Shown piece after piece: positions 3,992-28,480 of a DNA stretch of 64,000 bases. The stretch's first letter is position 1; the number at the start of each line of letters is the position of its first letter. Origin of the DNA: Gammaproteobacteria bacterium. Lineage in GTDB: Bacteria > Pseudomonadota > Gammaproteobacteria > Natronospirales > JAJUFS01. The notes beneath the pieces were generated by a model. That model worked only from the letters and a program-made list of their open reading frames with translations. It searched no databases and was not told where the DNA came from. Location of the stretch: assembly GCA_036381715.1 (NCBI GenBank), contig DASVCH010000122.1, positions 4 through 64,003 on the forward strand, in the 5' to 3' direction. A program made the position numbers and the translations under genes.

Positions 3992-5182
3992 TTACCGTAC
4001 GAACGGCCCCGTCACCTCGTACGTCACGCCATCAAACGCCAGCCCGCTGTTGCCGCGCTGCGAACTGAAGTAGAGCCGCGTTCCCGTCGGATCGAAGGCC
4101 GGACCGGTGACTTCCGATTTGCGGTGGCCGGTGAGCTGCACGACCGGAAAGACTTCCTGCGCCGGATTGATGGCAACGATCTGCATGTTGCCGCCGTCCT
4201 CGGCGACGTAGACGGTGCCGTCCTGCGAGACGGTGACGTTGTCGACGCCGGTCAGTACAGGTTCCGCGAACGTATTGTCGTCGTAAACCAGGCGCAGGGT
4301 TTCCGCGCCGATGTCGTACGCCCACACGCGGCCGCTGCCCTTCGTGGTGAAGTAGATGACGCCGTCCGCGTGCCAGGCGCCTTCACCGCCGTTGAATGCG
4401 GTGCTTTGCGATGCCTGGTGACGCGTCGGTGTCGATTCCGCGTCCGGATCGTCGATACGATGCCAGCTGACGTCGCCGCCCGCATCGCCGCTGACCTCCG
4501 CGGCTTCCAGCGTGCCGCTCCCGAGATCGGGAACGCCGCCGGTGACGGACGCGGGCGTGAAACGGTAGAAGCGTCCGTCGGGCAGGTCTTCGGTAAGGTA
4601 GATCCGGAAGGTTTCCGGATCGACGGCGGCGGCTTCGTGCATGAAGGTGCCGAGCGCGGGCAACGCGCGTGCAGGACGCGCGCCGAACGGATCGCACTCC
4701 CAGACGCGGCCGCTTTCCACTTCCTCGCAGGACAGCCAGGTATTCCAGGGCGTCGGTCCGCCCGCGCAATTGCGATGCGTGCCGTTCAGGATCGAATAGG
4801 CGTTGATGACTTCCCCGGATGCATTGAAGCGCATCGCGCTCGCGCCGCCCGCGCCGTCGTCCATTTCGCTGTTCGAGACGTAAACCCAGCCGCCGTCGTC
4901 CGCGGCGAAAACCGCGCCGCCGTCCGGCGCGGCATGCCAGAGAAATCCAAGGCCGGGTACGACGGGATGGCTGCTGCGGGCAACGATGCGCGCGGAAAAT
5001 CCTTCGGGCACGAACAGCCCGTCAACGGCAGACTCGCGCAGCTCGCGCGCCACGACGGGAAGCCCGCCGCCGCGGCAGGCGACCAGCAGCTTCCCCGCGG
5101 CGATCGCGGCAAGACTGCCCGCGCCGTAACGCAGCAGGCGCCGCCGCAGGGGATCCGGCATGTCGCTGCTGTGAAACGTCAT
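3992..5182 (-). CDS. secreted PhoX/DUF839-family protein (putative phosphatase)
   Basis: Twin-arginine type leader (DPLRRRLLRYGAGSLAAIAAG), PTPWNTWLSCEE, and repeated beta-propeller-like segments. Family recalled from memory. Confidence 0.65.
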   Translation of the reverse strand: MTFHSSDMPDPLRRRLLRYGAGSLAAIAAGKLLVACRGGGLPVVARELRESAVDGLFVPEGFSARIVARSSHPVVPGLGFLWHAAPDGGAVFAADDGGWVYVSNSEMDDGAGGASAMRFNASGEVINAYSILNGTHRNCAGGPTPWNTWLSCEEVESGRVWECDPFGARPARALPALGTFMHEAAAVDPETFRIYLTEDLPDGRFYRFTPASVTGGVPDLGSGTLEAAEVSGDAGGDVSWHRIDDPDAESTPTRHQASQSTAFNGGEGAWHADGVIYFTTKGSGRVWAYDIGAETLRLVYDDNTFAEPVLTGVDNVTVSQDGTVYVAEDGGNMQIVAINPAQEVFPVVQLTGHRKSEVTGPAFDPTGTRLYFSSQRGNSGLAFDGVTYEVTGPFVR

Positions 5183-5188
5183 GACGGT

Positions 5189-6235
5189 TTACTGCGGCCG
5201 TGAAAGATCGGTTTCAAGCGTGCGTGCGGAGACTTCGCGCGGCGTGACTTTCACGATCGCGCCAAAGACCGGGTGATCGAAGTAATGGATGTCGCCGCTG
5301 CGAAGGCGCCGGTACTGGCTCAGGCGGAAACCCTGGAACACGTCCTGTTCCGGTTCCAGCGCGAGAATCTCGGCTTCCACGAGCGTGATGTCGCCGCGCG
5401 CGAGCGCTTCGAGAATGGCCTGCCGGCGTCGTTCGCGCGCGAACGCCTTTTCTTCGGTCCACTGGCGGGTCGCGGCGGGCACGTCGCCGAGCACGGCGAG
5501 GTTGATGTCCTCGGGCAGGTAGACCAGGTCGAGATCGAGGTGCAGGTAGCGGCTTACCGACAATTGCACGACACCGTCGAGCGGGCGGACAGGCTGCGGG
5601 CCCTGTTCCTCGTCCTGCAGGAATTCCGGGGTTTCGATCGGCGGCTCCTGCGCGCCGGAATCCGCAAACGGCGCGTCGCCGGCCATGCCGAGCAGCGGCT
5701 GTTCGTTTTCGAGCGGCAAGGCGTCTTCTTCGGGCATCTCCGCTTCCAGCGAACCCGGCAAGGTGACGCGCAGGTATGGCGACTGGCTGCGTTCCAGCGG
5801 CGGTTGCGTCCACGCGACATGCAGGATGGGTTCGTACTTCGAGGATTGCCGCAGCCGCTCCGCGATATCGTTCAACTGGTACGCCGACTCGTCCAGCGGA
5901 ACGTAGGGCGTCGGCGTGTCGGGATGCAGGGATGCCGCTTCGCCAAGCGGCGATGCAGCGGCGGCATCCGTTTCGCGCGGGGAACCGGCGTCTTCGTCGA
6001 TCGCTGACGGGCCGGCCGGCGGCGGAAACAGCGGGCGCGCTTCCTCGACCGGCGGAATCCCGGCGTCCGTCGGCCAGGTTTCCGCGCTGCGGGTGTCGAG
6101 ATTGCGGAAGACGATCAGTTCCACGTCGTACCAGGTGACGGTGGCTTCCTTGATCGGCTTCTCTTCCGCGGCCGCTGCCATCGCGCTGGACGGCATGCAG
6201 GCCAGGATCATGGCGGCGGCAATCAGAAAACGCAC
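5189..6235 (-). CDS. periplasmic protein, CsiV-like (mfd-linked)
   Basis: Signal peptide MRFLIAAAMILACMPSSAMA and WYDVELIVFRN near the N-terminus. Sits immediately downstream of mfd, as CsiV-type genes do. The family call is tentative. Confidence 0.45.
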   Translation of the reverse strand: MRFLIAAAMILACMPSSAMAAAAEEKPIKEATVTWYDVELIVFRNLDTRSAETWPTDAGIPPVEEARPLFPPPAGPSAIDEDAGSPRETDAAAASPLGEAASLHPDTPTPYVPLDESAYQLNDIAERLRQSSKYEPILHVAWTQPPLERSQSPYLRVTLPGSLEAEMPEEDALPLENEQPLLGMAGDAPFADSGAQEPPIETPEFLQDEEQGPQPVRPLDGVVQLSVSRYLHLDLDLVYLPEDINLAVLGDVPAATRQWTEEKAFARERRRQAILEALARGDITLVEAEILALEPEQDVFQGFRLSQYRRLRSGDIHYFDHPVFGAIVKVTPREVSARTLETDLSRPQ

Positions 6236-6314: not shown

Positions 6315-9300
6315 TCACGCCGCCGCGGTTTCGGCGGGCGCAAGCCGGTCGAGCAGCGCGTGCACGAACGCGAAGCGCTCGGCGGGTTCGTCAAGCTCCG
6401 CGAGGAAGCGCAGCTTCTCCTGGCCGTCGAGCTTGTAGCGGCGGCTTTCGCGCTGGATCAGGTTGATGATCGCCATCGGGTCCACGGAGGGTTTCGCGTT
6501 GAACACGAGCCGTCCCCCGGACGGACCGGCCTCGATCTTGCGGATGCCGAGCGGCGCGGCTTTCAGGCGCAGTTCCGCGAGGCGGAAAAGATTCTTCGCG
6601 GGCTCGGGCAGCAGCCCGAAGCGGTCGATCATTTCCACCTGCAACTCATCCAGCGTCGCGCGATCCGCCGCCGAGGCGATGCGCTTGTACAGCACGAGGC
6701 GCATGTGCACGTCCGGCATGTAATCGGCGGGCAGCAGCGCGGGAACCTTCAGCTCGATTTCCGGCCCGTGATCCAGCGGCCGGTCGAGGTCCGGCACTTC
6801 GCCTTTCTTCAGCGCCTCGACCGCGCGTTCCAGCAGTTCGCTGTACAAGGTGAAACCGACTTCCTGGATCTGCCCGGACTGCTCCTCGCCCAAAAGCTCG
6901 CCCGCGCCGCGGATTTCGAGATCGTGCGTCGCGAGCGTGAAACCTGCGCCAAGGTCTTCCAGCGATTCGATCGCTTCCAGGCGCTTCACGGCGTCCGCGG
7001 TCATCGCGGCCTTTGGCGGCGTCAGCAAATAGGCGTAGGCGCGATGATGCGAACGGCCGACGCGCCCGCGCATCTGGTGCAGCTGCGCGAGCCCGAACCT
7101 GTCGGCGCGATGAATGATGATGGTGTTCGCGCTCGGCACGTCGATGCCGGACTCGATGATGGTCGTGCACAGCAGCACGTTGAAGCGCCGGTGATAGAAA
7201 TCCAGCATCACCTGTTCCAGCTCGCGCTCGTGCATCTGGCCGTGCGCGATGCGCACCTCGGCGTCCGGTACCAGCGCTTCGATCTGCAGCTTGAACTTTT
7301 CGATGGTCTGCACTTCGTTGTGCACGAAATACACCTGGCCGCCGCGCTTGATTTCGCGCAGGATCGCTTCCTGGATCAGCGCGTCGTTCCATTCCGAGAC
7401 GAAGGTCTTCACCGACAGGCGCTCTTCCGGCGGCGTCGCGATGATGGAAAGATCGCGGATGCCGGCGAGCGACATGTTGAGCGTTCTTGGAATCGGCGTC
7501 GCGGTGAGCGTGAGCACGTCGACTTCCGCGCGCAGTTTCTTCAGCTGTTCCTTGTGGCGCACGCCGAAACGCTGTTCCTCGTCGACAATGACAAGGCCAA
7601 GGTCCGCGAACTTCACCTTGTTCGACAGCAATCCGTGCGTGCCGACGACGATATCGACCTTGCCGTTTTCAAGACCCTGCAGGATTTCCGCCTGCTGCTT
7701 GCCGGTGCGAAAGCGCGACAGCGCCTCGATCTTCACCGGCCAGTCCGCGAAGCGGTCGCGGAAGGTCTGGTAATGCTGCTGCGCGAGCAGGGTGGTCGGC
7801 ACCAGCACCGCGACCTGCTTGCCGGCCTGCACAGCGACGAAGGCCGCGCGCAATGCGACTTCGGTCTTGCCGAAGCCGACGTCGCCGCAGACCACGCGGT
7901 CCATCGGCTGTTTTTGCGCCAGGTCGGCAACAACGGACGCGATGGCCGTTTCCTGGTCGGCGGTTTCCTCGAAGGGAAAGTCGTTCGCGAACTTTTCGTA
8001 GTCTTCCTCGCTGATGCGAAAGGCGTGGCCTTCGCGTGCGGCGCGGCGCGCGTAGATGTCCAGCAGTTCCGCCGCCGCGTCGCGCGCCTTTTCCGCCGCG
8101 CGGCGCTTCGCCTTGCTCCATTGTTCCGAACCGAGGCGATGCACCGGCGCGTGTTCCGGCGAGGTGCCGGTGTAACGCGAAATGAGATGCAGCGATTGCA
8201 CCGGCACGTACAGCTTGTCGCCGCCGGCGTATTCCAGCGTCAGGAACTCCGCGGACTGCCCGCCGACATCCAGCGTCTTCAAGCCGCGGTAACGGCCGAC
8301 GCCGTGTTCCTCGTGCACCACCGGCGCGCCTTCGGAAAGATCGGTGAGGTCGCGGATGATGGCGGCGGGATCGCGCGCGGCGCGCCGCCGGGCACGCGTC
8401 TTCGCGCGCTCGCCGAACACCTGCGGTTCCGAGATGACCGTGATGCCCTGCTGCGGAAGATGAATGCCTTCCTGCAGCGGCGCGACGCAGACGTTCAGCT
8501 TTTCATGGCCGTCGAGAAATTCCTGCCAGCTTTCGAGCGTCTTCGGTTCAAGCTTGCGCTTGCGCAACAGTTCCAGCAGCGTCTCGCGCCGGCCGGTGGA
8601 TTCGGCCACGAACAAGGCGCGGCCCGTGTAACGTTCCAGGAAATCCAGCAGCACGCGTGCCGGCTCTTCCAGGCGGCTGTTGAGACGCAGCTCCGGCGGC
8701 TGCACGCTGCCAAGATTCTTTCCGTCCTCCGTCAGCTCGAAAGACTGGATGCGCACGCGCGGATGCAGTTCGATCGCCGAGCGGATTTCTTCCGGCGCGA
8801 ACGCGATTTCCGCGGGCGCAAGCAATGGCCGCTCGATGTCGCCGCGCCGCTGCTCGAAGCGATCCTCGATCTGCGTCCGTGCGTCCTCGAACGCATCCGC
8901 GACGGTGTCGAACTCGCAGATGACCGTGTTCTTCGGCAGGTAATCGAACAGCGAGGACGTCTGCTCGAAAAACAGCGGCAGGTAATACTCGATGCCGGCG
9001 GGCGCGATGCCGTCGGAAACGGACTTGTAGATCTGGCTGCGTGCGGGATCGCCCTCGAAGCGCGCGCGATAGCGCGTACGGAAATCGCGGATCGCGTCCT
9101 TGTGCAACGGAAACTCGCGCGCGGGCAGCAGGCGGATGTTGTCGAGCTTTTCCTTCGAGAGTTGCGTCTCCGGATCGAAACTGCGGATGCTGTCGATCTC
9201 GTCGTCGAAAAGATCAATTCGAAACGGCAGCGGCGAGCCCATCGGGAAAATGTCGATCAGCGAGCCGCGCACCGCGAACTCGCCGTGCTCCATCACCTGC

Positions 9301-9770
9301 GAAACGCGCGCGTACCCCGAATTCTCCAGGCGCAACGACAGCGCCTCCACGTCGAGCTGCTCGCCAACGTCCATCACGAAGCTCGCGCCATCCAGCCAGC
9401 TTCGCGGCGCAAGCCGGTTCAGCAGCGCGCCCGCCGTGGCGACCACGACACCGCGCTTCATGCCTTCGAGACGATTCAGTGTCGCGAGTCTCCGCGAGAC
9501 GATGTCCTGGTGCGGAGAAAAGACGTCATACGGCAGCGTCTCCCAGTCCGGGAACGGAAACACCGGCAGGTTCGCGCCTTCGAGCAGGAACGCGAGCTCC
9601 GCTTCCAGCCGCTCCGCCGACTGCGCGCCGGAACAGATCACCAGCAGCGGACGCTCGTCTCGTTGCGCCGCCTCGGCGATCGCCAACGCGGGCGCGGCGC
9701 CATACAACTGGCCCCAGCGCGTCGCCTGGCCGTTCGCGGGGAGTTCGGGTTTCAGCAGTTTTTTCGTCAT
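6315..9770 (-). CDS. mfd: transcription-repair coupling factor
   Basis: GDVGFGKTEVA, DEEQRFGV, TATPIPRT, QLHQMRGRVGR, plus UvrB-homology and CarD-like regions. ORF trimmed to MTKKLLKPELP (ATG 9770). Confidence 0.97.
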   Translation of the reverse strand: MTKKLLKPELPANGQATRWGQLYGAAPALAIAEAAQRDERPLLVICSGAQSAERLEAELAFLLEGANLPVFPFPDWETLPYDVFSPHQDIVSRRLATLNRLEGMKRGVVVATAGALLNRLAPRSWLDGASFVMDVGEQLDVEALSLRLENSGYARVSQVMEHGEFAVRGSLIDIFPMGSPLPFRIDLFDDEIDSIRSFDPETQLSKEKLDNIRLLPAREFPLHKDAIRDFRTRYRARFEGDPARSQIYKSVSDGIAPAGIEYYLPLFFEQTSSLFDYLPKNTVICEFDTVADAFEDARTQIEDRFEQRRGDIERPLLAPAEIAFAPEEIRSAIELHPRVRIQSFELTEDGKNLGSVQPPELRLNSRLEEPARVLLDFLERYTGRALFVAESTGRRETLLELLRKRKLEPKTLESWQEFLDGHEKLNVCVAPLQEGIHLPQQGITVISEPQVFGERAKTRARRRAARDPAAIIRDLTDLSEGAPVVHEEHGVGRYRGLKTLDVGGQSAEFLTLEYAGGDKLYVPVQSLHLISRYTGTSPEHAPVHRLGSEQWSKAKRRAAEKARDAAAELLDIYARRAAREGHAFRISEEDYEKFANDFPFEETADQETAIASVVADLAQKQPMDRVVCGDVGFGKTEVALRAAFVAVQAGKQVAVLVPTTLLAQQHYQTFRDRFADWPVKIEALSRFRTGKQQAEILQGLENGKVDIVVGTHGLLSNKVKFADLGLVIVDEEQRFGVRHKEQLKKLRAEVDVLTLTATPIPRTLNMSLAGIRDLSIIATPPEERLSVKTFVSEWNDALIQEAILREIKRGGQVYFVHNEVQTIEKFKLQIEALVPDAEVRIAHGQMHERELEQVMLDFYHRRFNVLLCTTIIESGIDVPSANTIIIHRADRFGLAQLHQMRGRVGRSHHRAYAYLLTPPKAAMTADAVKRLEAIESLEDLGAGFTLATHDLEIRGAGELLGEEQSGQIQEVGFTLYSELLERAVEALKKGEVPDLDRPLDHGPEIELKVPALLPADYMPDVHMRLVLYKRIASAADRATLDELQVEMIDRFGLLPEPAKNLFRLAELRLKAAPLGIRKIEAGPSGGRLVFNAKPSVDPMAIINLIQRESRRYKLDGQEKLRFLAELDEPAERFAFVHALLDRLAPAETAAA

Positions 9771-9954
9771 GAATACAACGTGTTGAATGAACCGGGAATC
9801 CGGTGAACGCAAAAATCCGCTCCCGGAGGCCGGGCGCGGTGCGAGGCGCGATTATACCTGCTCACGGGAGGATGGTCAGGGGTTGCGGAGTTAGTTGGGA
9901 TGTCGGATAACCGGCACAGGGGGTGAATCCTGGGCAAACGAGAGAGACATTCTT

Positions 9955-10473
9955 ATGAGCGAATCAAACGAAGAAGTGGGTCAGCGTATTCAAGAGAAAT
10001 TCCAGTTCTATCTGTTAGGATTGACCTTCACATTGCTTGGTCTATCGGTACAGACCGCAAATTTCGGTGAGTCATTTGTGGCGGGCATTCTTGAACTTAG
10101 CGCTTGGACGCTGTTGTTCATTTCTGCTCTTGCACAAGCTTACAATCTTGAAAGAGCCCCGCATATTTACAAGCTCTTCGATGTGCATAACAACGTTAAA
10201 CAAGATCAGAAGGAATTCCAGGATTTGAAAATGAAAGGAACTTCGAGTGTGACTGTGAGGCAGACGCGCGAAATAATGGATATTGATGAAGTGATACGAA
10301 ACGTGACTACAAAAGTCAGTGCAGTCGATGCCGCAGTCAAAAGTCTAGAGGAAAAAATTCATATATCGTATCGAATTCACCGATACGGATTTGTTGTTGG
10401 CGTGGCTATGCTGCTTCTTGCGCGAGCTTGGATTCCGGCTCAAGAGATATTTTTATATCTACTTCGCGGCTAG
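9955..10473 (+). CDS. hypothetical membrane protein: 2 N-terminal TM helices, a charged helical segment, then 1 C-terminal TM helix
   Basis: ORF 9895..10473 trimmed to ATG 9955 (MSESNEEVGQ). Hydrophobic stretches are FYLLGLTFTLLGLSV, FVAGILELSAWTLLFISALAQA and YGFVVGVAMLLLARAWI. AT-rich codon usage unlike its neighbours. Confidence 0.6.
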   Translation: MSESNEEVGQRIQEKFQFYLLGLTFTLLGLSVQTANFGESFVAGILELSAWTLLFISALAQAYNLERAPHIYKLFDVHNNVKQDQKEFQDLKMKGTSSVTVRQTREIMDIDEVIRNVTTKVSAVDAAVKSLEEKIHISYRIHRYGFVVGVAMLLLARAWIPAQEIFLYLLRG

Positions 10474-10591
10474 AGCAGATCGGGTGATAGCAACGGTTTG
10501 CCATTTTTTCGATTTTCGGTGGATTATGCTTGCGCTTATCTACCCTGGGCTCCCTAGATTTATCCTTCTGGAACGACCTAACGTGAAAGCG

Positions 10592-11002
10592 ATGAACAGG
10601 CTGATTGCTCTACGTAAACACTGGCTTACCATGAATGCTGTCGGTGATTTTTCTGGCAGCAACATAGATACTGCAGCATCACCCTTTTTTCTATTACAAG
10701 ATGGAAGCAACTTCGATGAGCGATTTCTTCGCCTGAGTGTTTGGTTAGGTCTGCTGTTTGTAGTCGTCGAAGGATATCTTGAACTTAAATTGAACGACGC
10801 AAGAATCGACGCGTTCCTTGCGCACAAAAATCGCGTCGGCGAACTACGGCTTTTCCGGAACTGTATTTTCCATTATCAGAAAGACGTCCAAGACCCACGT
10901 CTGCAGAAGTTCCTCGGTCGCGAAGCTTGTATGGGCTGGGCGCACGAACTGAGCCGCGCTATTGGACAATTGCTTGAGCGGGAACTTCAGCGATATAGGT
11001 AG
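10592..11002 (+). CDS. hypothetical small protein with a HEPN-like R-N-x3-H motif
   Basis: ORF 10391..11002; starts are possible at 10526 or 10592 (MNRLIALRKHW). LFRNCIFHYQ at codons 10856-10873 fits the HEPN Rx4-6H signature, placed before the last predicted helix of a helical domain of about 136 aa. Confidence 0.5.
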   Translation: MNRLIALRKHWLTMNAVGDFSGSNIDTAASPFFLLQDGSNFDERFLRLSVWLGLLFVVVEGYLELKLNDARIDAFLAHKNRVGELRLFRNCIFHYQKDVQDPRLQKFLGREACMGWAHELSRAIGQLLERELQRYR

Positions 11003-11023: not shown

Positions 11024-11236
11024 TTATCTCGAATACAACTCTCTGATTTCAACTCGTAATGCCTTCGCCAGTAAAGCGACTTCATCATCCGTTACGCGTC
11101 TTACCTGCGATTCGATCTTTGCCAGCGTTCCTCTCGTGATTTCCCACTTGAGCAGATTGCAGCGCGCGACGAGATCGCCTTGGGTCAATCCCTGCGTTTC
11201 CCGGATTTTTCTGACTTGCGGTCCGACAACGTTCAT
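11024..11236 (-). CDS. XRE-family helix-turn-helix transcriptional regulator
   Basis: MNVVGPQVRKIRETQGLTQGDLVARCNLLKWEITRGTLAKIESQVRRVTDDEVALLAKAL is a classic HTH_3 pattern. ORF 11024..11308 trimmed to ATG 11236. Confidence 0.85.
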   Translation of the reverse strand: MNVVGPQVRKIRETQGLTQGDLVARCNLLKWEITRGTLAKIESQVRRVTDDEVALLAKALRVEIRELYSR

Positions 11237-11244
11237 GAACGATT

Positions 11245-11260
11245 GCTCCGATTTCGGAGC
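11245..11260. promoter_or_regulatory. 16-bp palindromic operator candidate, GCTCCGA-TT-TCGGAGC
   Basis: 7-bp perfect inverted arms. Located 9 nt upstream of the XRE start codon, abutting a TTGATT -35-like hexamer for the divergent symE-like gene. Confidence 0.6.
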
Positions 11261-11290
11261 TTGATTTTGTCGTTTCAAATCCGCCAGAAT

Positions 11291-11306
11291 GCTCCGATAT
11301 CGGAGC
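11291..11306. promoter_or_regulatory. 16-bp perfect palindrome, GCTCCGATATCGGAGC (second operator candidate)
   Basis: Same 7-bp arms as 11245-11260, with centres 46 bp apart. Lies directly after a CAGAAT -10-like hexamer and 14 nt before the symE-like ATG. Confidence 0.6.
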
Positions 11307-11319
11307 AAAGAGTTTTAGG

Positions 11320-11574
11320 ATGCAATCAAAACGGAAATTAAAGGTCAGACGGGCGTTTTCGGCCAAGGTGCGGCCGTCCGTTCAGTTGTCGGGCAAGTGG
11401 CTTGAGCGTGCAGGTTTCCAGGTCGGACAACCGATCGAGGTGTTGGTTCGGAAGCAGCGGCTACTGGTTCGGATTGCCGCGCCGGAAAGAAATGACGGGG
11501 GATCCGAATCCAATCTGCGGAAACTGGATTCGCCGGGTACGGCGAATGACGGCAACCTGCGTCTGAAGAGGTAG
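11320..11574 (+). CDS. SymE-like / AbrB-fold (SpoVT-AbrB) small protein
   Basis: VQLSGKWLERAGFQVGQPIEVLVRKQRLLVRI matches the SymE core pattern (L-x-G-x-W-L-E-x-A-G-F-x-x-G-x-x-V-x-V). Confidence 0.6.
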   Translation: MQSKRKLKVRRAFSAKVRPSVQLSGKWLERAGFQVGQPIEVLVRKQRLLVRIAAPERNDGGSESNLRKLDSPGTANDGNLRLKR

Positions 11575-11581
11575 CAAATCC

Positions 11582-11776
11582 ATGCAATACACAATCATCG
11601 TTGAACAGGGTGCGGAAAGCTGGGGTGCTTACGTTCCAGACTTGCCGGGATGCATTGCAGTTGGCGAAAGCCGGGCAGAAGTGCTGAGCCTCATCCATGA
11701 AGCGATGGAATTCCACCTGGAAGGCTTGAGAGACGCGGGCGAACCGGTTCCGAAATCAGATTCCTTCAGCGCGTAG
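11582..11776 (+). CDS. HicB-family (UPF0150) antitoxin-like protein with no DNA-binding extension
   Basis: MQYTIIVEQGAESWGAYVPDLPGCIAVGESRAEVLSLIHEAMEFHLEGLRDAGEPVP is the typical HicB N-terminal domain. The gene starts 7 nt after the symE-like stop and has a GAAGAGG RBS. Confidence 0.8.
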   Translation: MQYTIIVEQGAESWGAYVPDLPGCIAVGESRAEVLSLIHEAMEFHLEGLRDAGEPVPKSDSFSA

Positions 11777-11880
11777 GTTGGGGTGAATGGACGCGGTCCC
11801 GGTACTCCGGGAGCGAACCCCAACACGAACAAGCTGCGGGTCCATGTTTGTTGGGGTTCGCGCTGCTCACCCCAACCTAC
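11773..11880. repeat. Nested palindromic element built on four GTTGGGG/CCCCAAC cores
   Basis: Outer perfect 14-bp inverted repeat: GTAGGTTGGGGTGA (11773-11786) and TCACCCCAACCTAC (11867-11880). Inner perfect 13-bp inverted repeat: GCGAACCCCAACA (11813-11825) and TGTTGGGGTTCGC (11849-11861). Confidence 0.9.
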
Positions 11881-11886
11881 AGGGAA

Positions 11887-11932
11887 ATCCTGTTAATCCT
11901 GAAAAATCCTGTGAATCCTGTCCATTGCTTTT
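11887..11932. repeat. 46-bp REP-like element containing four spaced AATCCTG units (copy 1)
   Basis: ATCCTGTTAATCCTGAAAAATCCTGTGAATCCTGTCCATTGCTTTT. The reverse complement of 52500-52545 matches it with 3 mismatches. Confidence 0.9.
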
Positions 11933-11938
11933 GCTGTT

Positions 11939-13798
11939 CTACCCGTTACTCACCCGCAACCGCATGTCCGTCACCGCCTGGTGATGCACCAGCGCGGGAT
12001 GCTCCTTGATCCAGTCGGCGAGTTGTTCGCGCGCGTAGCGGTAGCCGATTTCCACGAGTTCGTCGAAGCGGTCCCACGCGAGCAGGTCGAAGCCGCCGAT
12101 GGGCGGATTGAGGTACAGGTCGGCCGCCGCTTTCGCGGCTTCGAGTTCGCGCCGGCTGGAGAGCATGGTCGCTTTCAATGCAACACGATGCACGATGGGC
12201 GCGGGATATGGATCCTGCTGGTAGTCGCTGTAGTTCCGGATGTATTCCCAGGCGCCGGGCAGCGCATCGCGGGTGTAGATCATGTCGTCTTCGGCGGTGA
12301 GGTCCGCGGCGATGACGAGTCCGTTGCATTGCCGGCGCATGACTTCGACCGGCAGGTTGTCGAGGATGCCGCCGTCGATGAGCAGTTCGCCGTTCTCGAT
12401 CGCCGGCGGGAAGATGCCCGGCAGCGATGCGCTGGCGCGCTGCGCTTTCCACATCGGGCCGGTGCGGTGCACGTGCTCGCAGTTTTTTGAAATGTTGCTC
12501 GAAACGGCGAAGTAGCGCAGCCACAGGTCCGGAATTTCGATCTCGCCGAAATGCTTTCTCAGGCCCTGTTCCATGCGCTCGCCCTGCAGCAGGCCCATCA
12601 CCGGCAGCGTGTAGTCGCTCATCGGACGTTCGGACACGAATGCCTGCCGGTAGGCGCGCAGCATTTTCAGGTTGTCCCAGCCGAGCGCGACGCCGCCCGC
12701 GACGATCGCGCCGATGCTGGTGCCGCCGACCATGTCGACCGGAATGCCGGCTTCCCGAAGCGCGCGAATGACGCCGATGTGCGCGAAGCCGCGCGCGCCG
12801 CCACCGGCCAGCACGAGCCCGACGGCGTTGCCGGAAAGAAATCTTGCAAGGCGGAAGTAGCCGACGTCGCGTCCCTCGACGACGTGATGGTGCTCGGAAA
12901 CGCGAAGCGCGTTCAGCCAGTCGCTGGTGCCGGCGGGTGCGCGCGAGGCATCGGCGTGCAGCAGCACGAGCTCCGCCGGCGGCATGGCGGCGCCTTTCGG
13001 CAGGCGGGCGGCCAGTGCGTTCGCCGCGCGTTGCGGTTCGGAACCCGCGCGCGCGACCAGCAGTACGCGATCGGCGTACGTGAGACATTTCGCGGTCCAC
13101 GCCGTCGGCGCCGCATCCGCCTGCAGGACGGCGTAATCGTGGTCCGCCTCGACGGCGTCCAGGAATTGCTCGAGCTGGATGGCGGCGCCGTCAGCCTTGA
13201 TGCCCATGCCGGGGCCAAGCCGCGCGGCGGCGCTGCGGGGATCGACCAGTGCGGCCGTGCCGAAACGCAGCAGCGCGAGTTGCAGGCGCGAGGCGAAGGC
13301 GTAGGCGTCGACGTCCTCGTCCAGCGGCACCACGGCGACCAGGCCGAGGCGCGCATCGTCCGCGTGATCGCGTTGCTGGGTGCCGGCGAGACGCTCGATG
13401 ATGAAACGCGCCAGCGTGCGGCTCACCTGCGGATACCGTTCGGTCACCGCTTCGAAACGCGCCTGCGAGAGGTGCGCGAGCGTGCTGTCGCGCCGCGCGA
13501 CCACGGTGGCGCCGCGCTGGCCGCCGGTGAACAGCGCGATTTCACCCACCACGTCGCCCGGACCGAGATCGCCCACGTGCCGCTCGCCGCCGTTGCCGTC
13601 GTCGAGGTTCACCGCCAGCCGCCCGGTGAGCAGGATGTGCATGCCGTCGCCGGGCTCATACTGGCGATAGAGATTTTCGCCGCGTGCGATGTGAACGATT
13701 TCCAGTGCGTCTTCGATTTCGGCCATCAAGGCGTCGGAGGCATCGCCGAAGATCCGCACCGCCGCCTGGCGGAGCGCTTCCCGCGCGCGGGGGTTCAT
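11939..13798 (-). CDS. cyclic-nucleotide-binding domain / patatin-like phospholipase fusion (NTE-like architecture)
   Basis: N-terminal cNMP-binding signature GDVVGEIALFTGGQRGATVVA. Patatin motifs GLVLAGGGARGFAHIGV (oxyanion), GGTSIGA (G-x-S-x-G) and LIDGGILDNLP (catalytic Asp). Confidence 0.88.
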   Translation of the reverse strand: MNPRAREALRQAAVRIFGDASDALMAEIEDALEIVHIARGENLYRQYEPGDGMHILLTGRLAVNLDDGNGGERHVGDLGPGDVVGEIALFTGGQRGATVVARRDSTLAHLSQARFEAVTERYPQVSRTLARFIIERLAGTQQRDHADDARLGLVAVVPLDEDVDAYAFASRLQLALLRFGTAALVDPRSAAARLGPGMGIKADGAAIQLEQFLDAVEADHDYAVLQADAAPTAWTAKCLTYADRVLLVARAGSEPQRAANALAARLPKGAAMPPAELVLLHADASRAPAGTSDWLNALRVSEHHHVVEGRDVGYFRLARFLSGNAVGLVLAGGGARGFAHIGVIRALREAGIPVDMVGGTSIGAIVAGGVALGWDNLKMLRAYRQAFVSERPMSDYTLPVMGLLQGERMEQGLRKHFGEIEIPDLWLRYFAVSSNISKNCEHVHRTGPMWKAQRASASLPGIFPPAIENGELLIDGGILDNLPVEVMRRQCNGLVIAADLTAEDDMIYTRDALPGAWEYIRNYSDYQQDPYPAPIVHRVALKATMLSSRRELEAAKAAADLYLNPPIGGFDLLAWDRFDELVEIGYRYAREQLADWIKEHPALVHHQAVTDMRLRVSNG

Positions 13799-26713: not shown

Positions 26714-28480
26714 GTGGCGAAGCACCGGCAGGAATTCGACGTCTGGGACGCCTACCGGCGGCTTTTGCGTTACGCCGCGCCGCACCGCTGGGTGTTCGCG
26801 CTCGGCGCGCTGGCGATGATCGTCGGCGCGCTTGGCGAACTTGCCACCGCGTGGCTGATGGAGCCGCTGCTCGACCAGGGTTTCGGCGAGCGTGACGCCG
26901 AAGTCATCATGCTGATTCCCGTTGCCGTCATCGGCATATCGCTGCTGCGCGGCCTGGGCGCCTTCGGCAGTTCCTATTCCATCGGCTGGATCGCGCGGCA
27001 TGTCATCAAGAAGCTGCGACAGGACGTCTTCGAAAAGCTGCTCGCCATGCCGGCGCGCTATTACGACCGCAGTTCCGGCGGCCAGCTGATCTCGAAAATC
27101 ACCTACAACATCGAGCAGGTCGCCGAATCGAGTTCGCGCGCGATCATCGTCCTGCTCGGCGACAGCCTGCGCGCGATCGCGCTGATCGGCTACATGCTGT
27201 GGATGAGCTGGCAGCTGTCGCTGTTCGTGTTCGTGCTGATGCCGCTGCTCGCCGCGATCGTGCGCTGGGTCAGCAAGCGCTTCCGGCGCTACAGCACGCG
27301 CATCCAGAATTCGATGGGCGACGTGACGCAGGTGGCGGAGGAAATCATCGTCGGCCAGCGGGTCATCAAGATCTTCGGCGGCGAGGACTACGAGCGCGAA
27401 CGCTTCGGCGGCGTGAACGAAAGCAATCGCCGGCTGCACATGAAACTGCTGGCGACGAAAGCCGGCAGCGTGCCCATCGTGCAGGTCATCAGCAGCATCG
27501 GCATTGCGCTCGTGATCTACTTCGCGGCGCGTGGATCCGAGAGTTTCACGTTCACCGCCGGCGAATTCACCTCGTATCTCGGCGCCATGCTGTTGCTGTC
27601 CCAGCCGATGAAGCGCCTCACCGAGATCAACGAACCGCTGCAGCGCGGGATCGCGGCGGCGCACAGCATTTTCGAACTGCTCGACAGCGAGTCGCAGGCG
27701 GACACCGGCACCCGCGAACTCGGCCGTGCGCGCGGCGAAGTGCGCTTCGAGAACGTGCGCTTTGCCTACAGCGCGGACAAGGGCGACGTGCTGTGCGGCA
27801 TCGACATCGCCGTCGCGCCCGGCGAAACCGTCGCGCTGGTCGGACGCTCGGGCAGCGGCAAGAGTTCGCTCGTCAGCCTGCTGCCGCGCTTCTACGAAAC
27901 CACCGGCGGCAGCATTCGCATTGACGGCGTCGACATCCGCGATTTGAAACTTCGCGACCTGCGGCGCCAGATTGCGCTGGTATCGCAGGATATCGTGCTG
28001 TTCAACGACACGATCGCGCGCAACATCGCCTACGGCGGACTTGGCGATGCGGCGGAAAGCGCCGTTCATGACGCCGCGCGCGCCGCGCACGCGCTCGAGT
28101 TCATCGAAAAACTGCCGGAAGGTTTCGACACGCTGGTCGGCGACCGCGGCCTGCTGTTGTCCGGCGGGCAGCGGCAGCGCCTCGCCATCGCGCGCGCGCT
28201 CCTGAAGGACGCGCCCATCCTGATTCTCGACGAGGCGACGTCCGCGCTCGACACCGAATCCGAACGCCACATCCAGGATGCGCTGGACGAACTGATGAAA
28301 TCCCGCACCACGTTCGTGATCGCGCATCGCCTTTCGACCGTCGAGAAAGCCGACCGCATTCTCGTGCTGGAAGCCGGACGCATCGTCGAGCAGGGTGCGC
28401 ACGCCGAACTGCTCGAACGCGACGGCGCCTACGCCGCGCTGCATCGCCTGCAGTTCAGCGAAGCCGGCCGCGAAGCCTGA
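26714..28480 (+). CDS. msbA: lipid A export ABC transporter (permease/ATPase fusion)
   Basis: 6-TM domain, Walker A GRSGSGKSS, LSGGQRQR, ILILDEATSALD. Conserved msbA-lpxK-kdsB linkage. Confidence 0.92.
   Translation: MAKHRQEFDVWDAYRRLLRYAAPHRWVFALGALAMIVGALGELATAWLMEPLLDQGFGERDAEVIMLIPVAVIGISLLRGLGAFGSSYSIGWIARHVIKKLRQDVFEKLLAMPARYYDRSSGGQLISKITYNIEQVAESSSRAIIVLLGDSLRAIALIGYMLWMSWQLSLFVFVLMPLLAAIVRWVSKRFRRYSTRIQNSMGDVTQVAEEIIVGQRVIKIFGGEDYERERFGGVNESNRRLHMKLLATKAGSVPIVQVISSIGIALVIYFAARGSESFTFTAGEFTSYLGAMLLLSQPMKRLTEINEPLQRGIAAAHSIFELLDSESQADTGTRELGRARGEVRFENVRFAYSADKGDVLCGIDIAVAPGETVALVGRSGSGKSSLVSLLPRFYETTGGSIRIDGVDIRDLKLRDLRRQIALVSQDIVLFNDTIARNIAYGGLGDAAESAVHDAARAAHALEFIEKLPEGFDTLVGDRGLLLSGGQRQRLAIARALLKDAPILILDEATSALDTESERHIQDALDELMKSRTTFVIAHRLSTVEKADRILVLEAGRIVEQGAHAELLERDGAYAALHRLQFSEAGREA

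Follow-up and report, generated by a model that had tools for sequence, protein, structure and literature searches.

Two small genes in a low-GC islet of a gammaproteobacterial genome: a membrane protein and a probable divergent HEPN-type protein as probable independent single-gene units

When a gene for a small membrane protein (open reading frame 1, ORF1) is followed, in the same orientation, by a gene for an all-helical protein with a HEPN-like motif (ORF2), do the two form one system, or are they strangers that have become neighbours? The question is raised by an islet of low guanine-plus-cytosine (GC) content in a Gammaproteobacteria bacterium (GTDB lineage Natronospirales; JAJUFS01), within a stretch of 64,000 nucleotides, here called the window, that corresponds to positions 4 to 64,003 of the forward strand of contig DASVCH010000122.1 (NCBI GenBank assembly GCA_036381715.1). 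An initial annotation, made from the letters alone, proposed a two-gene system of a membrane sensor or effector and a ribonuclease (RNase). The analysis given here arrives at another answer, which is considered probable: two independent single-gene units side by side, the second of which would encode a divergent stand-alone HEPN-type RNase.

On the forward strand at 9955-10473, ORF1 opens with an ATG and encodes a small membrane protein of 172 aa (NCBI VF254_07940). A spacer of 118 bp (10474-10591) separates it from ORF2 (10592-11002, forward strand), which belongs to a large family without annotation and probably contains a divergent domain of HEPN type. The public start of ORF2 in NCBI is GTG 10583, which gives 139 aa; the alternative ATG 10592, which gives 136 aa, is favoured here because the N-termini of the relatives (M-x2-3-L-x-A-L-x-K-H-W) fit it better. 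A candidate Rx4H catalytic motif, R-N-C-I-F-H, is encoded on the forward strand at nt 10856-10873, exactly where the initial annotation had placed its R-N-x3-H, with R89 at 10856-10858 and H94 at 10871-10873 (R89 and H94 in the 136-aa numbering are R92 and H97 in the 139-aa numbering). The earlier description of two co-directional ORFs in a low-GC islet is likewise borne out, as GC content is 0.43 in ORF1 and 0.48 in ORF2 (0.43-0.50 when the XRE gene that follows them is included) versus 0.65-0.68 in the genes that flank the islet.

The evidence for independence comes from the company that the relatives of the two genes keep. Profile searches located the ORF2 family at 40 species-level genome loci and the ORF1 family at 63 metagenome loci, and a hidden Markov model (HMM) of each family was then run on the loci of the other, both models recovering their own gene in the window. 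The ORF2-family HMM detected an ORF2 relative in 0 of 68 ORF1-family loci (the 63 from metagenomes plus five others), and the ORF1-family HMM detected an ORF1 relative in 0 of about 45 ORF2-family loci; on the contigs of the first close relatives (two for ORF2 and 10 for ORF1), the two genes are never found together. An all-against-all BLAST of the genes lying within 1.8 kb of ORF2 relatives at 38 genome loci returned no conserved neighbour, and the only gene family common to more than two ORF2-relative loci is a serine recombinase, present at four. Because the genes do not co-occur, a finding that the initial annotation had itself named as one that would count against its proposal, the two-gene reading is not supported, and the adjacency of ORF1 and ORF2 is best filed as a chance meeting of unrelated genes from the same mobile pool.

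ORF2 had also been labelled an orphan, and that label was wrong. Word-indexed searches return only two close relatives of ORF2; an exhaustive profile search recovers 895 cluster representatives at E<=1e-3, including 265 at E<=1e-10, with a typical length of ~145 aa. In a second search, all of the matches listed (120 of 546) are called ‘hypothetical protein’ and none of these has a precomputed Pfam domain. Within collections of plasmids and phages, relatives occur on six Ralstonia megaplasmids, in no phages and on 3 of 2.9 million viral contigs; i.e. phages and plasmids are nearly devoid of the family. Considered in ORF2 by itself, the motif is not evidence, because shuffled versions of the protein contain Rx4-6H in 72 % of cases (and R[NDH]xxxH in 5 %), and any weight that it has must come from conservation in the family. 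That conservation is high: of 268 members, 264 (98.5 %) carry R[NHD]xxxH, and the four that do not are one truncated sequence and three with single substitutions. The residue following the motif arginine is nearly always asparagine, and the motif is embedded in a nearly invariant block, LRRFRNxxFHYQ. In an alignment of 63 sequences, the invariant or nearly invariant positions, in the 139-aa numbering, are L10, V60, V61, E63, G64, L79, L88, R92, N93, F96, H97, Q99, F110 and W119; an independent set of 89 sequences has the same conserved core, and in neither of two independent alignments does the conservation of the motif R, N or H fall below 90 %. Conservation of both R and H among homologues, on which the initial annotation had made its HEPN reading depend, thus holds.

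Profiles and predicted structure lean in the same direction. When 152 family members were scanned with ~24,700 Pfam models, sub-threshold matches were obtained to HEPN_Cthe2314 in eight members (best E 0.0033), Ribonuc_2-5A in three (0.033), HEPN_Swt1 in two (0.025) and pEK499_p136 in one; HEPN-clan models were the only ones to match more than one member, and the matches cover the motif region. The family consensus gives weak matches over that region to HEPN_Cthe2314 (E 0.051) and HepT-like_2 (E 0.03-0.12). As a signal read from sequence profiles, this recurrence of HEPN-clan models is suggestive. AlphaFold prediction from three sequences was mediocre, with a predicted local distance difference test score (pLDDT) of 74.9 and Foldseek matches that were not significant; prediction with the 63-sequence alignment gave a confident model (pLDDT 90.6, predicted template modelling score 0.84) that is all-helical, in agreement with what had been surmised for this 136-aa protein. 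The helices span residues 2-21, 46-67, 73-96, 105-111 and 116-138, so placed that R92 and N93 close the third long helix and H97 lies just beyond it, ahead of a short helix and the last long one. The HEPN-like reading of the initial annotation therefore stands in part, i.e. in the motif kept by 264 of 268 members, the all-helical fold and the recurring sub-threshold Pfam matches, and falls short of a significant profile or fold match. Since the motif and the recurrence of HEPN-clan models stand beside non-significant matches, HEPN membership is plausible but unproven; the balance tilts, if slightly, towards a divergent HEPN domain that lies outside every curated HEPN family.

Read in this way, ORF2 would be a divergent HEPN-type, metal-independent RNase, probably a homodimer in which two R-N-x3-H motifs join into an active site. 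It would probably work alone, in abortive-infection or growth-arrest defence, as other single-gene HEPN cassettes do, and may be latent until infection or stress, upon which growth arrest would follow. This mechanism is proposed because of what is known of HEPN RNases and because two single-gene HEPN anti-phage cassettes, taken up at the end of this text, have been published; the RNase activity, the dimerisation and the defence role of ORF2 are all inferred by analogy. A bolder idea, offered only tentatively, is that the ORF2 family might be an unrecognised clade of minimal stand-alone HEPN RNases that provide abortive-infection defence with one gene, control themselves without an antitoxin (e.g. 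through activation by a phage cue) and are spread widely by integrons (in Vibrio, Shewanella, Pseudoalteromonas, Pseudomonas, Alcanivorax and others).

Several observations weigh against the preferred reading of two independent units with a HEPN-type RNase as the second. Nothing significant in sequence, profile or structure ties ORF2 to a HEPN protein that has been solved or curated: all HEPN-clan Pfam matches of the family fall below the gathering thresholds, a sequence-profile search of the PDB with the family is empty, and Foldseek of the confident model gives no significant match in the PDB or BFVD. The best Foldseek match, HepT (7bxo_G), has an E of 0.47 and a TM-score of 0.32, and FAT domains, chemoreceptor bundles and generic four-helix bundles score level with it. 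The main weakness is that a free-standing RNase without a partner is expected to be toxic; no restraining partner was found, and nothing explains why the protein would be harmless. In addition, the adjacency, shared orientation and similar GC content of ORF1 and ORF2 in the window make a joint function there conceivable, if improbable, and the window has no attC site, so that the word ‘cassette’ fits the relatives and not the window copy.

One alternative draws on these same gaps and holds that ORF2 is not a nuclease, the R-N-x3-H patch serving instead in ligand or partner binding, regulation or anti-defence and the HEPN resemblance being superficial. Besides a high-confidence model that finds no significant HEPN fold, the empty PDB search, the sub-threshold standing of every Pfam HEPN match and the lack of an antitoxin-like conserved neighbour, this alternative can point to near-invariant E63, G64, Q99 and W119 (139-aa numbering), which lie outside the classical HEPN signature. 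It must, however, account for the exact HEPN spelling (R, polar N, x3, H) in 98.5 % of members, for the fact that, from the whole of Pfam, only HEPN-clan models recur, and do so over the motif region, and for the occurrence of members in restriction-modification and other defence neighbourhoods; a non-nuclease ORF2 is hence judged rather doubtful.

The preferred reading, that ORF1 and ORF2 are separate units, gains from the way in which their relatives are housed. On the contigs of the relatives, short genes are arrayed in one direction at intervals of ~100 bp, the spacers contain RYYYAAC...GTTRRRY inverted repeats, and attC sites were scored in these contigs with a covariance model, R1, made from 17 aligned sites with an R-box/L-box structure written by hand. 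In a check of the R1 alignment, 70 % of cells are paired, sliding the partner lowers this to 30-46 %, and compensatory change is seen in 14 of 18 pairs. RNAalifold had found no consensus structure in the attC alignment owing to register shifts, and the hand-written structure replaced it; R1 itself replaced two home-made heuristics that discriminated poorly (40 real matches versus nine in shuffles; 13 of 19 known sites recovered). With R1, 79 attC sites were found in 48 related loci (E<=0.1) and 32 in the 63 ORF1-family metagenome loci (E<=0.05), and all of these (111/111) are on the gene strand, many of them in loci that had no training site. For the ORF2 family, attC matches occur at 14 of the 40 genome loci, and loci with attC include those of Vibrio, Pseudoalteromonas, Marinobacterium, Thiomicrospira, Celerinatantimonas, Pseudomonas, Alcanivorax and Denitrificimonas, and a V. 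parahaemolyticus member lies within a typical superintegron array. In at least nine loci (L020, L022, L024, L025, L027, L031, L032, L055 and L058), the attC begins no more than ~60 nt from the stop codon of the ORF2 relative, a codon that is often the TAA within a GCCTAAC box, and the start is preceded, at 10-25 nt, by a GTTAGGC box. For the ORF1 family, the relative in Halomonas (L012, 5001-5510) is framed by attC sites at 4905-4981 and 5514-5574, and the relative at locus L014 occupies the first cassette position, next to a divergent intI whose product has Phage_int_SAM_4 and Phage_integrase domains; a GTTAGAT box immediately precedes this ORF1 relative. Because the relatives sit attC-bounded, gene by gene, the ORF1 and ORF2 families circulate as independent integron cassettes.

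A side observation concerns the closest ORF2 relative (L001). The product of the cassette just upstream of it (1009-1518), 169 aa long, comes near the threshold for the classical HEPN domain PF05168 (E 4e-4); given this near match, two different HEPN-like cassettes would stand side by side at that locus.

The window copy itself is outside any recognisable integron, since neither attC nor intI was found in the 64 kb. Run over the whole window with filters off, R1 gave nothing significant, its best score (17.5 bits, E 0.076) falling in GC-rich coding sequence at 28403 and its best score within the islet being only 10.3 bits (E 4.1); an attC heuristic with 68 % sensitivity scored 0 sites in the window, and tblastn with the IntI of locus L014 detected no intI there. 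The ORF1-ORF2 spacer is without an attC hairpin or significant secondary structure, its folding showing no excess over shuffled sequence (z +1.0), and contains a single weak sigma-70-like site (10498-10527). Rfam models matched nothing in the islet, and no tRNA genes were found in the window. The islet, which is horizontally acquired, measures ~2 kb and lies between mfd (6315-9812, reverse strand) on its left and a patatin-like/cNMP-binding gene (cNMP, cyclic nucleotide monophosphate; 11939-13798, reverse strand) on its right. Five small genes make it up: ORF1, ORF2, an XRE-family helix-turn-helix gene (11024-11308, reverse strand), a SymE-like gene (11320-11574, forward strand) and a HicB-like gene (11582-11776, forward strand), the last two having a GC content of 0.55-0.57. 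The XRE gene is convergent with ORF2, 21 bp from its stop codon, and is not part of the ORF1/ORF2 pair. With these three genes adjoining, the toxin-antitoxin-like surroundings described in the initial annotation are confirmed.

Might the islet, then, be a decayed integron cassette array that has lost its attC sites and its integrase? In favour stand the cassette-borne relatives of both ORFs, the finding that no defence-type cassette is commoner in sedentary integrons than the toxin-antitoxin module (10.1101/2024.07.02.601686), and the small, compact genes of the islet, with their spacers of ~100 bp. However, the R1 scores and spacer folding given above leave the islet without even a degenerate attC, intI is missing from all of the 64 kb, the XRE gene is reversed close behind ORF2, and GTGAATCCTG, present at both edges, suggests another insertion mechanism; a decayed array is therefore thought unlikely.

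The edges of the islet have further features of their own. One GTGAATCCTG lies at 9923-9932, just left of ORF1, and the right edge (11885-11920) has four AATCCTG units at a spacing of 9-10 bp that include an exact GTGAATCCTG; ACAGGG precedes the GTGAATCCTG-type repeats at both edges. Going by their sequence, these repeats could be boundary repeats of an inserted islet or protein-binding sites, with the caveat that exact 10-mers also recur by chance in the stretch. Also at the right edge, directly after the stop codon of the HicB-like gene, is a very stable branched hairpin (11772-11881; -41.4 kcal/mol as DNA, z -7.4) with four copies of GTTGGGGT in alternating orientation, for which Rfam has no matching family. 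It was rejected as an attC, the outer stem having reversed polarity (5'-GTT...AAC-3'), the inner part being only ~40 nt and the R1 score 10.3 bits, and also as a dispersed repetitive extragenic palindromic element, since GTTGGGGT occurs nowhere else in the 64 kb.

Among the toxin-antitoxin-like neighbours, the SymE-like gene, of AbrB fold, is directly followed by the HicB-like gene, which encodes 64 aa without a DNA-binding domain, and the XRE regulator is divergent from both; the three-gene combination is unusual for a toxin-antitoxin module. Between the XRE gene and the divergent SymE-like and HicB-like genes are two 16-bp palindromes, GCTCCGATTTCGGAGC and GCTCCGATATCGGAGC, 46 bp apart (11241-11308), which look like operators by their sequence. 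Because of the positions of these palindromes, the true start of the XRE gene is likely to be ATG 11237 and not TTG 11308.

ORF1, for its part, belongs to a family of rare small membrane proteins that elsewhere are often single-gene integron cassettes; word-indexed searches return only 10 close relatives. In the hydropathy profile, residues 40-62 and 144-165 stand out clearly as hydrophobic segments, a third, weaker one lies at ~17-37 (below 1.4 in the window copy and above 1.4 in relatives), and the 79-aa segment between the hydrophobic segments is charged (14 K+R and 12 D+E), so that three transmembrane segments and a charged stretch of ~80 aa, as first described for this 172-aa protein, agree with both coordinates and hydropathy. 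By the positive-inside rule, the 79-aa helical segment is probably cytoplasmic. Invariant positions in the family include Q13, F16, F18, Y19, F25, T26, L28-L30, Q33-A35, G38, E47, W51 and R157. No family-level match was obtained in Pfam, NCBIfam or PADLOC, a PDB profile search with the ORF1 family was empty, and Pfam, NCBIfam, PHROGs and PADLOC yielded nothing above threshold for the ORF1 and ORF2 proteins themselves. Two candidate likenesses were rejected as compositional, namely PDC-S26 (E 5e-4), matched by the window member only, and the Pycsar protein PycTM (E 0.0018), matched by one of 11 family members. The initial suggestion of a SLATT or two-transmembrane (2TM) effector did not hold, as no SLATT or 2TM-effector model was matched, and the neighbourhood of ORF1 has no nucleotide-signal generator, i.e. 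no cyclase or SMODS partner. ORF1 is taken to be unrelated to ORF2 and would be, at most, a stand-alone membrane-acting cassette product. At locus L014 (6001-6623), the ORF1 relative (P0011) is longer, at 202 aa, with ~30 unrelated residues added because the reading frame continues into the attC (6516-6623).

In Marinobacter flavimaris (L006, 5446-6590), an ORF1 relative and, 22 bp upstream of it, a gene for a 143-aa predicted lipoprotein share one attC-bounded cassette; the partner in this two-gene cassette is thus a lipoprotein gene and not, as in the window, a HEPN-like gene. That ORF1 and ORF2 are nevertheless one abortive-infection or toxin module, in which a HEPN RNase is linked to a sensor or effector in the membrane, is highly improbable and close to refuted: co-directional genes 118 bp apart with GC contents of 0.43 and 0.48, and small-cassette defence precedents for both gene types, speak for it, but its two halves do not co-occur at any of the loci compared, each gene has its own attC-bounded cassette in integrons, the Marinobacter relative of ORF1 has another cassette-mate, and ORF1 matches no SLATT or 2TM effector.

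Outside integrons, some members of the ORF2 family are found in defence settings, including positions after an AAA_13 ATPase, after a DEAD helicase and an HNH protein, and beside RhuM. In a Candidatus Anstonellales archaeon (L046, 2634-7322), an ORF2-family gene separates hsdS from hsdR in a type I restriction-modification operon, a position that is also occupied by known anticodon nucleases and Abi-type genes. Other non-integron members lie less than 2 kb from a serine recombinase (resolvase), at L029, L034, L037, L040 and probably L044, which points to other mobile-element contexts. The ORF2 family that emerges comprises ~900 sequence clusters without a Pfam model or a name, has a near-invariant HEPN-type motif and is often cassette-borne; because recent work has shown such cassettes to be rich in very small anti-phage genes, it is a reasonable candidate for testing. 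The failure of the membrane-plus-HEPN claim removes a false lead, and the window, by showing that the same genes exist outside integrons without attC, bears on how cassettes enter and leave the pool.

Among known systems, HepT/MntA and the Pfam families PF18730 (Cthe_2314-like) and PF20797 (HepT-like_2) share with ORF2 a helical make-up, a length of ~130-150 aa and an R-N-x3-H close to the helices at the C-terminus. The highest-ranked Foldseek matches of ORF2, none of them significant, include HepT chains, and PF18730 and PF20797 match weakly over the motif region; however, everything in this comparison is below threshold (Pfam E 0.003-0.1, Foldseek TM-score 0.32-0.44), and ORF2, unlike HepT/MntA, has no MNT nucleotidyltransferase or other conserved partner. 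ORF1 is like the SLATT/2TM effectors and the Pycsar protein PycTM in being short and having paired N-terminal membrane helices, and unlike them in having neither a Pfam SLATT match nor a cyclase or SMODS partner. Small defence cassettes that consist of a transmembrane protein only, Brigantia of V. cholerae and LDILCD_22380 of V. vulnificus, can be likened to ORF1, by description only, as small membrane proteins without a known domain, the relatives of ORF1 likewise being single-gene cassettes. For ORF2, one of the closest precedents is HNPBCG_15845 of V. mimicus, a single-gene cassette for an AbiU2-type HEPN protein that is a predicted dimer and confers resistance to T4 and T7 (10.64898/2026.03.17.712381); members of the ORF2 family are often single-gene integron cassettes as well, but HNPBCG_15845 matches the AbiU2 HEPN model, and the ORF2 family has no AbiU2 match at all. 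The other is Esos, a single-gene anti-phage cassette of the sedentary chromosomal integron of V. cholerae (Darracq et al., 10.1101/2024.07.02.601686), a species with no locus among the 40 species-level loci of the ORF2 family. The two are likened by description only, and the window copy lies outside any integron; within those bounds, Esos, which has been linked to growth arrest or cell death on infection (10.1101/2024.07.02.601686), resembles ORF2 in being small and stand-alone, with a HEPN-like domain as its sole recognisable feature, and resembles the relatives of ORF2 in making up one integron cassette.

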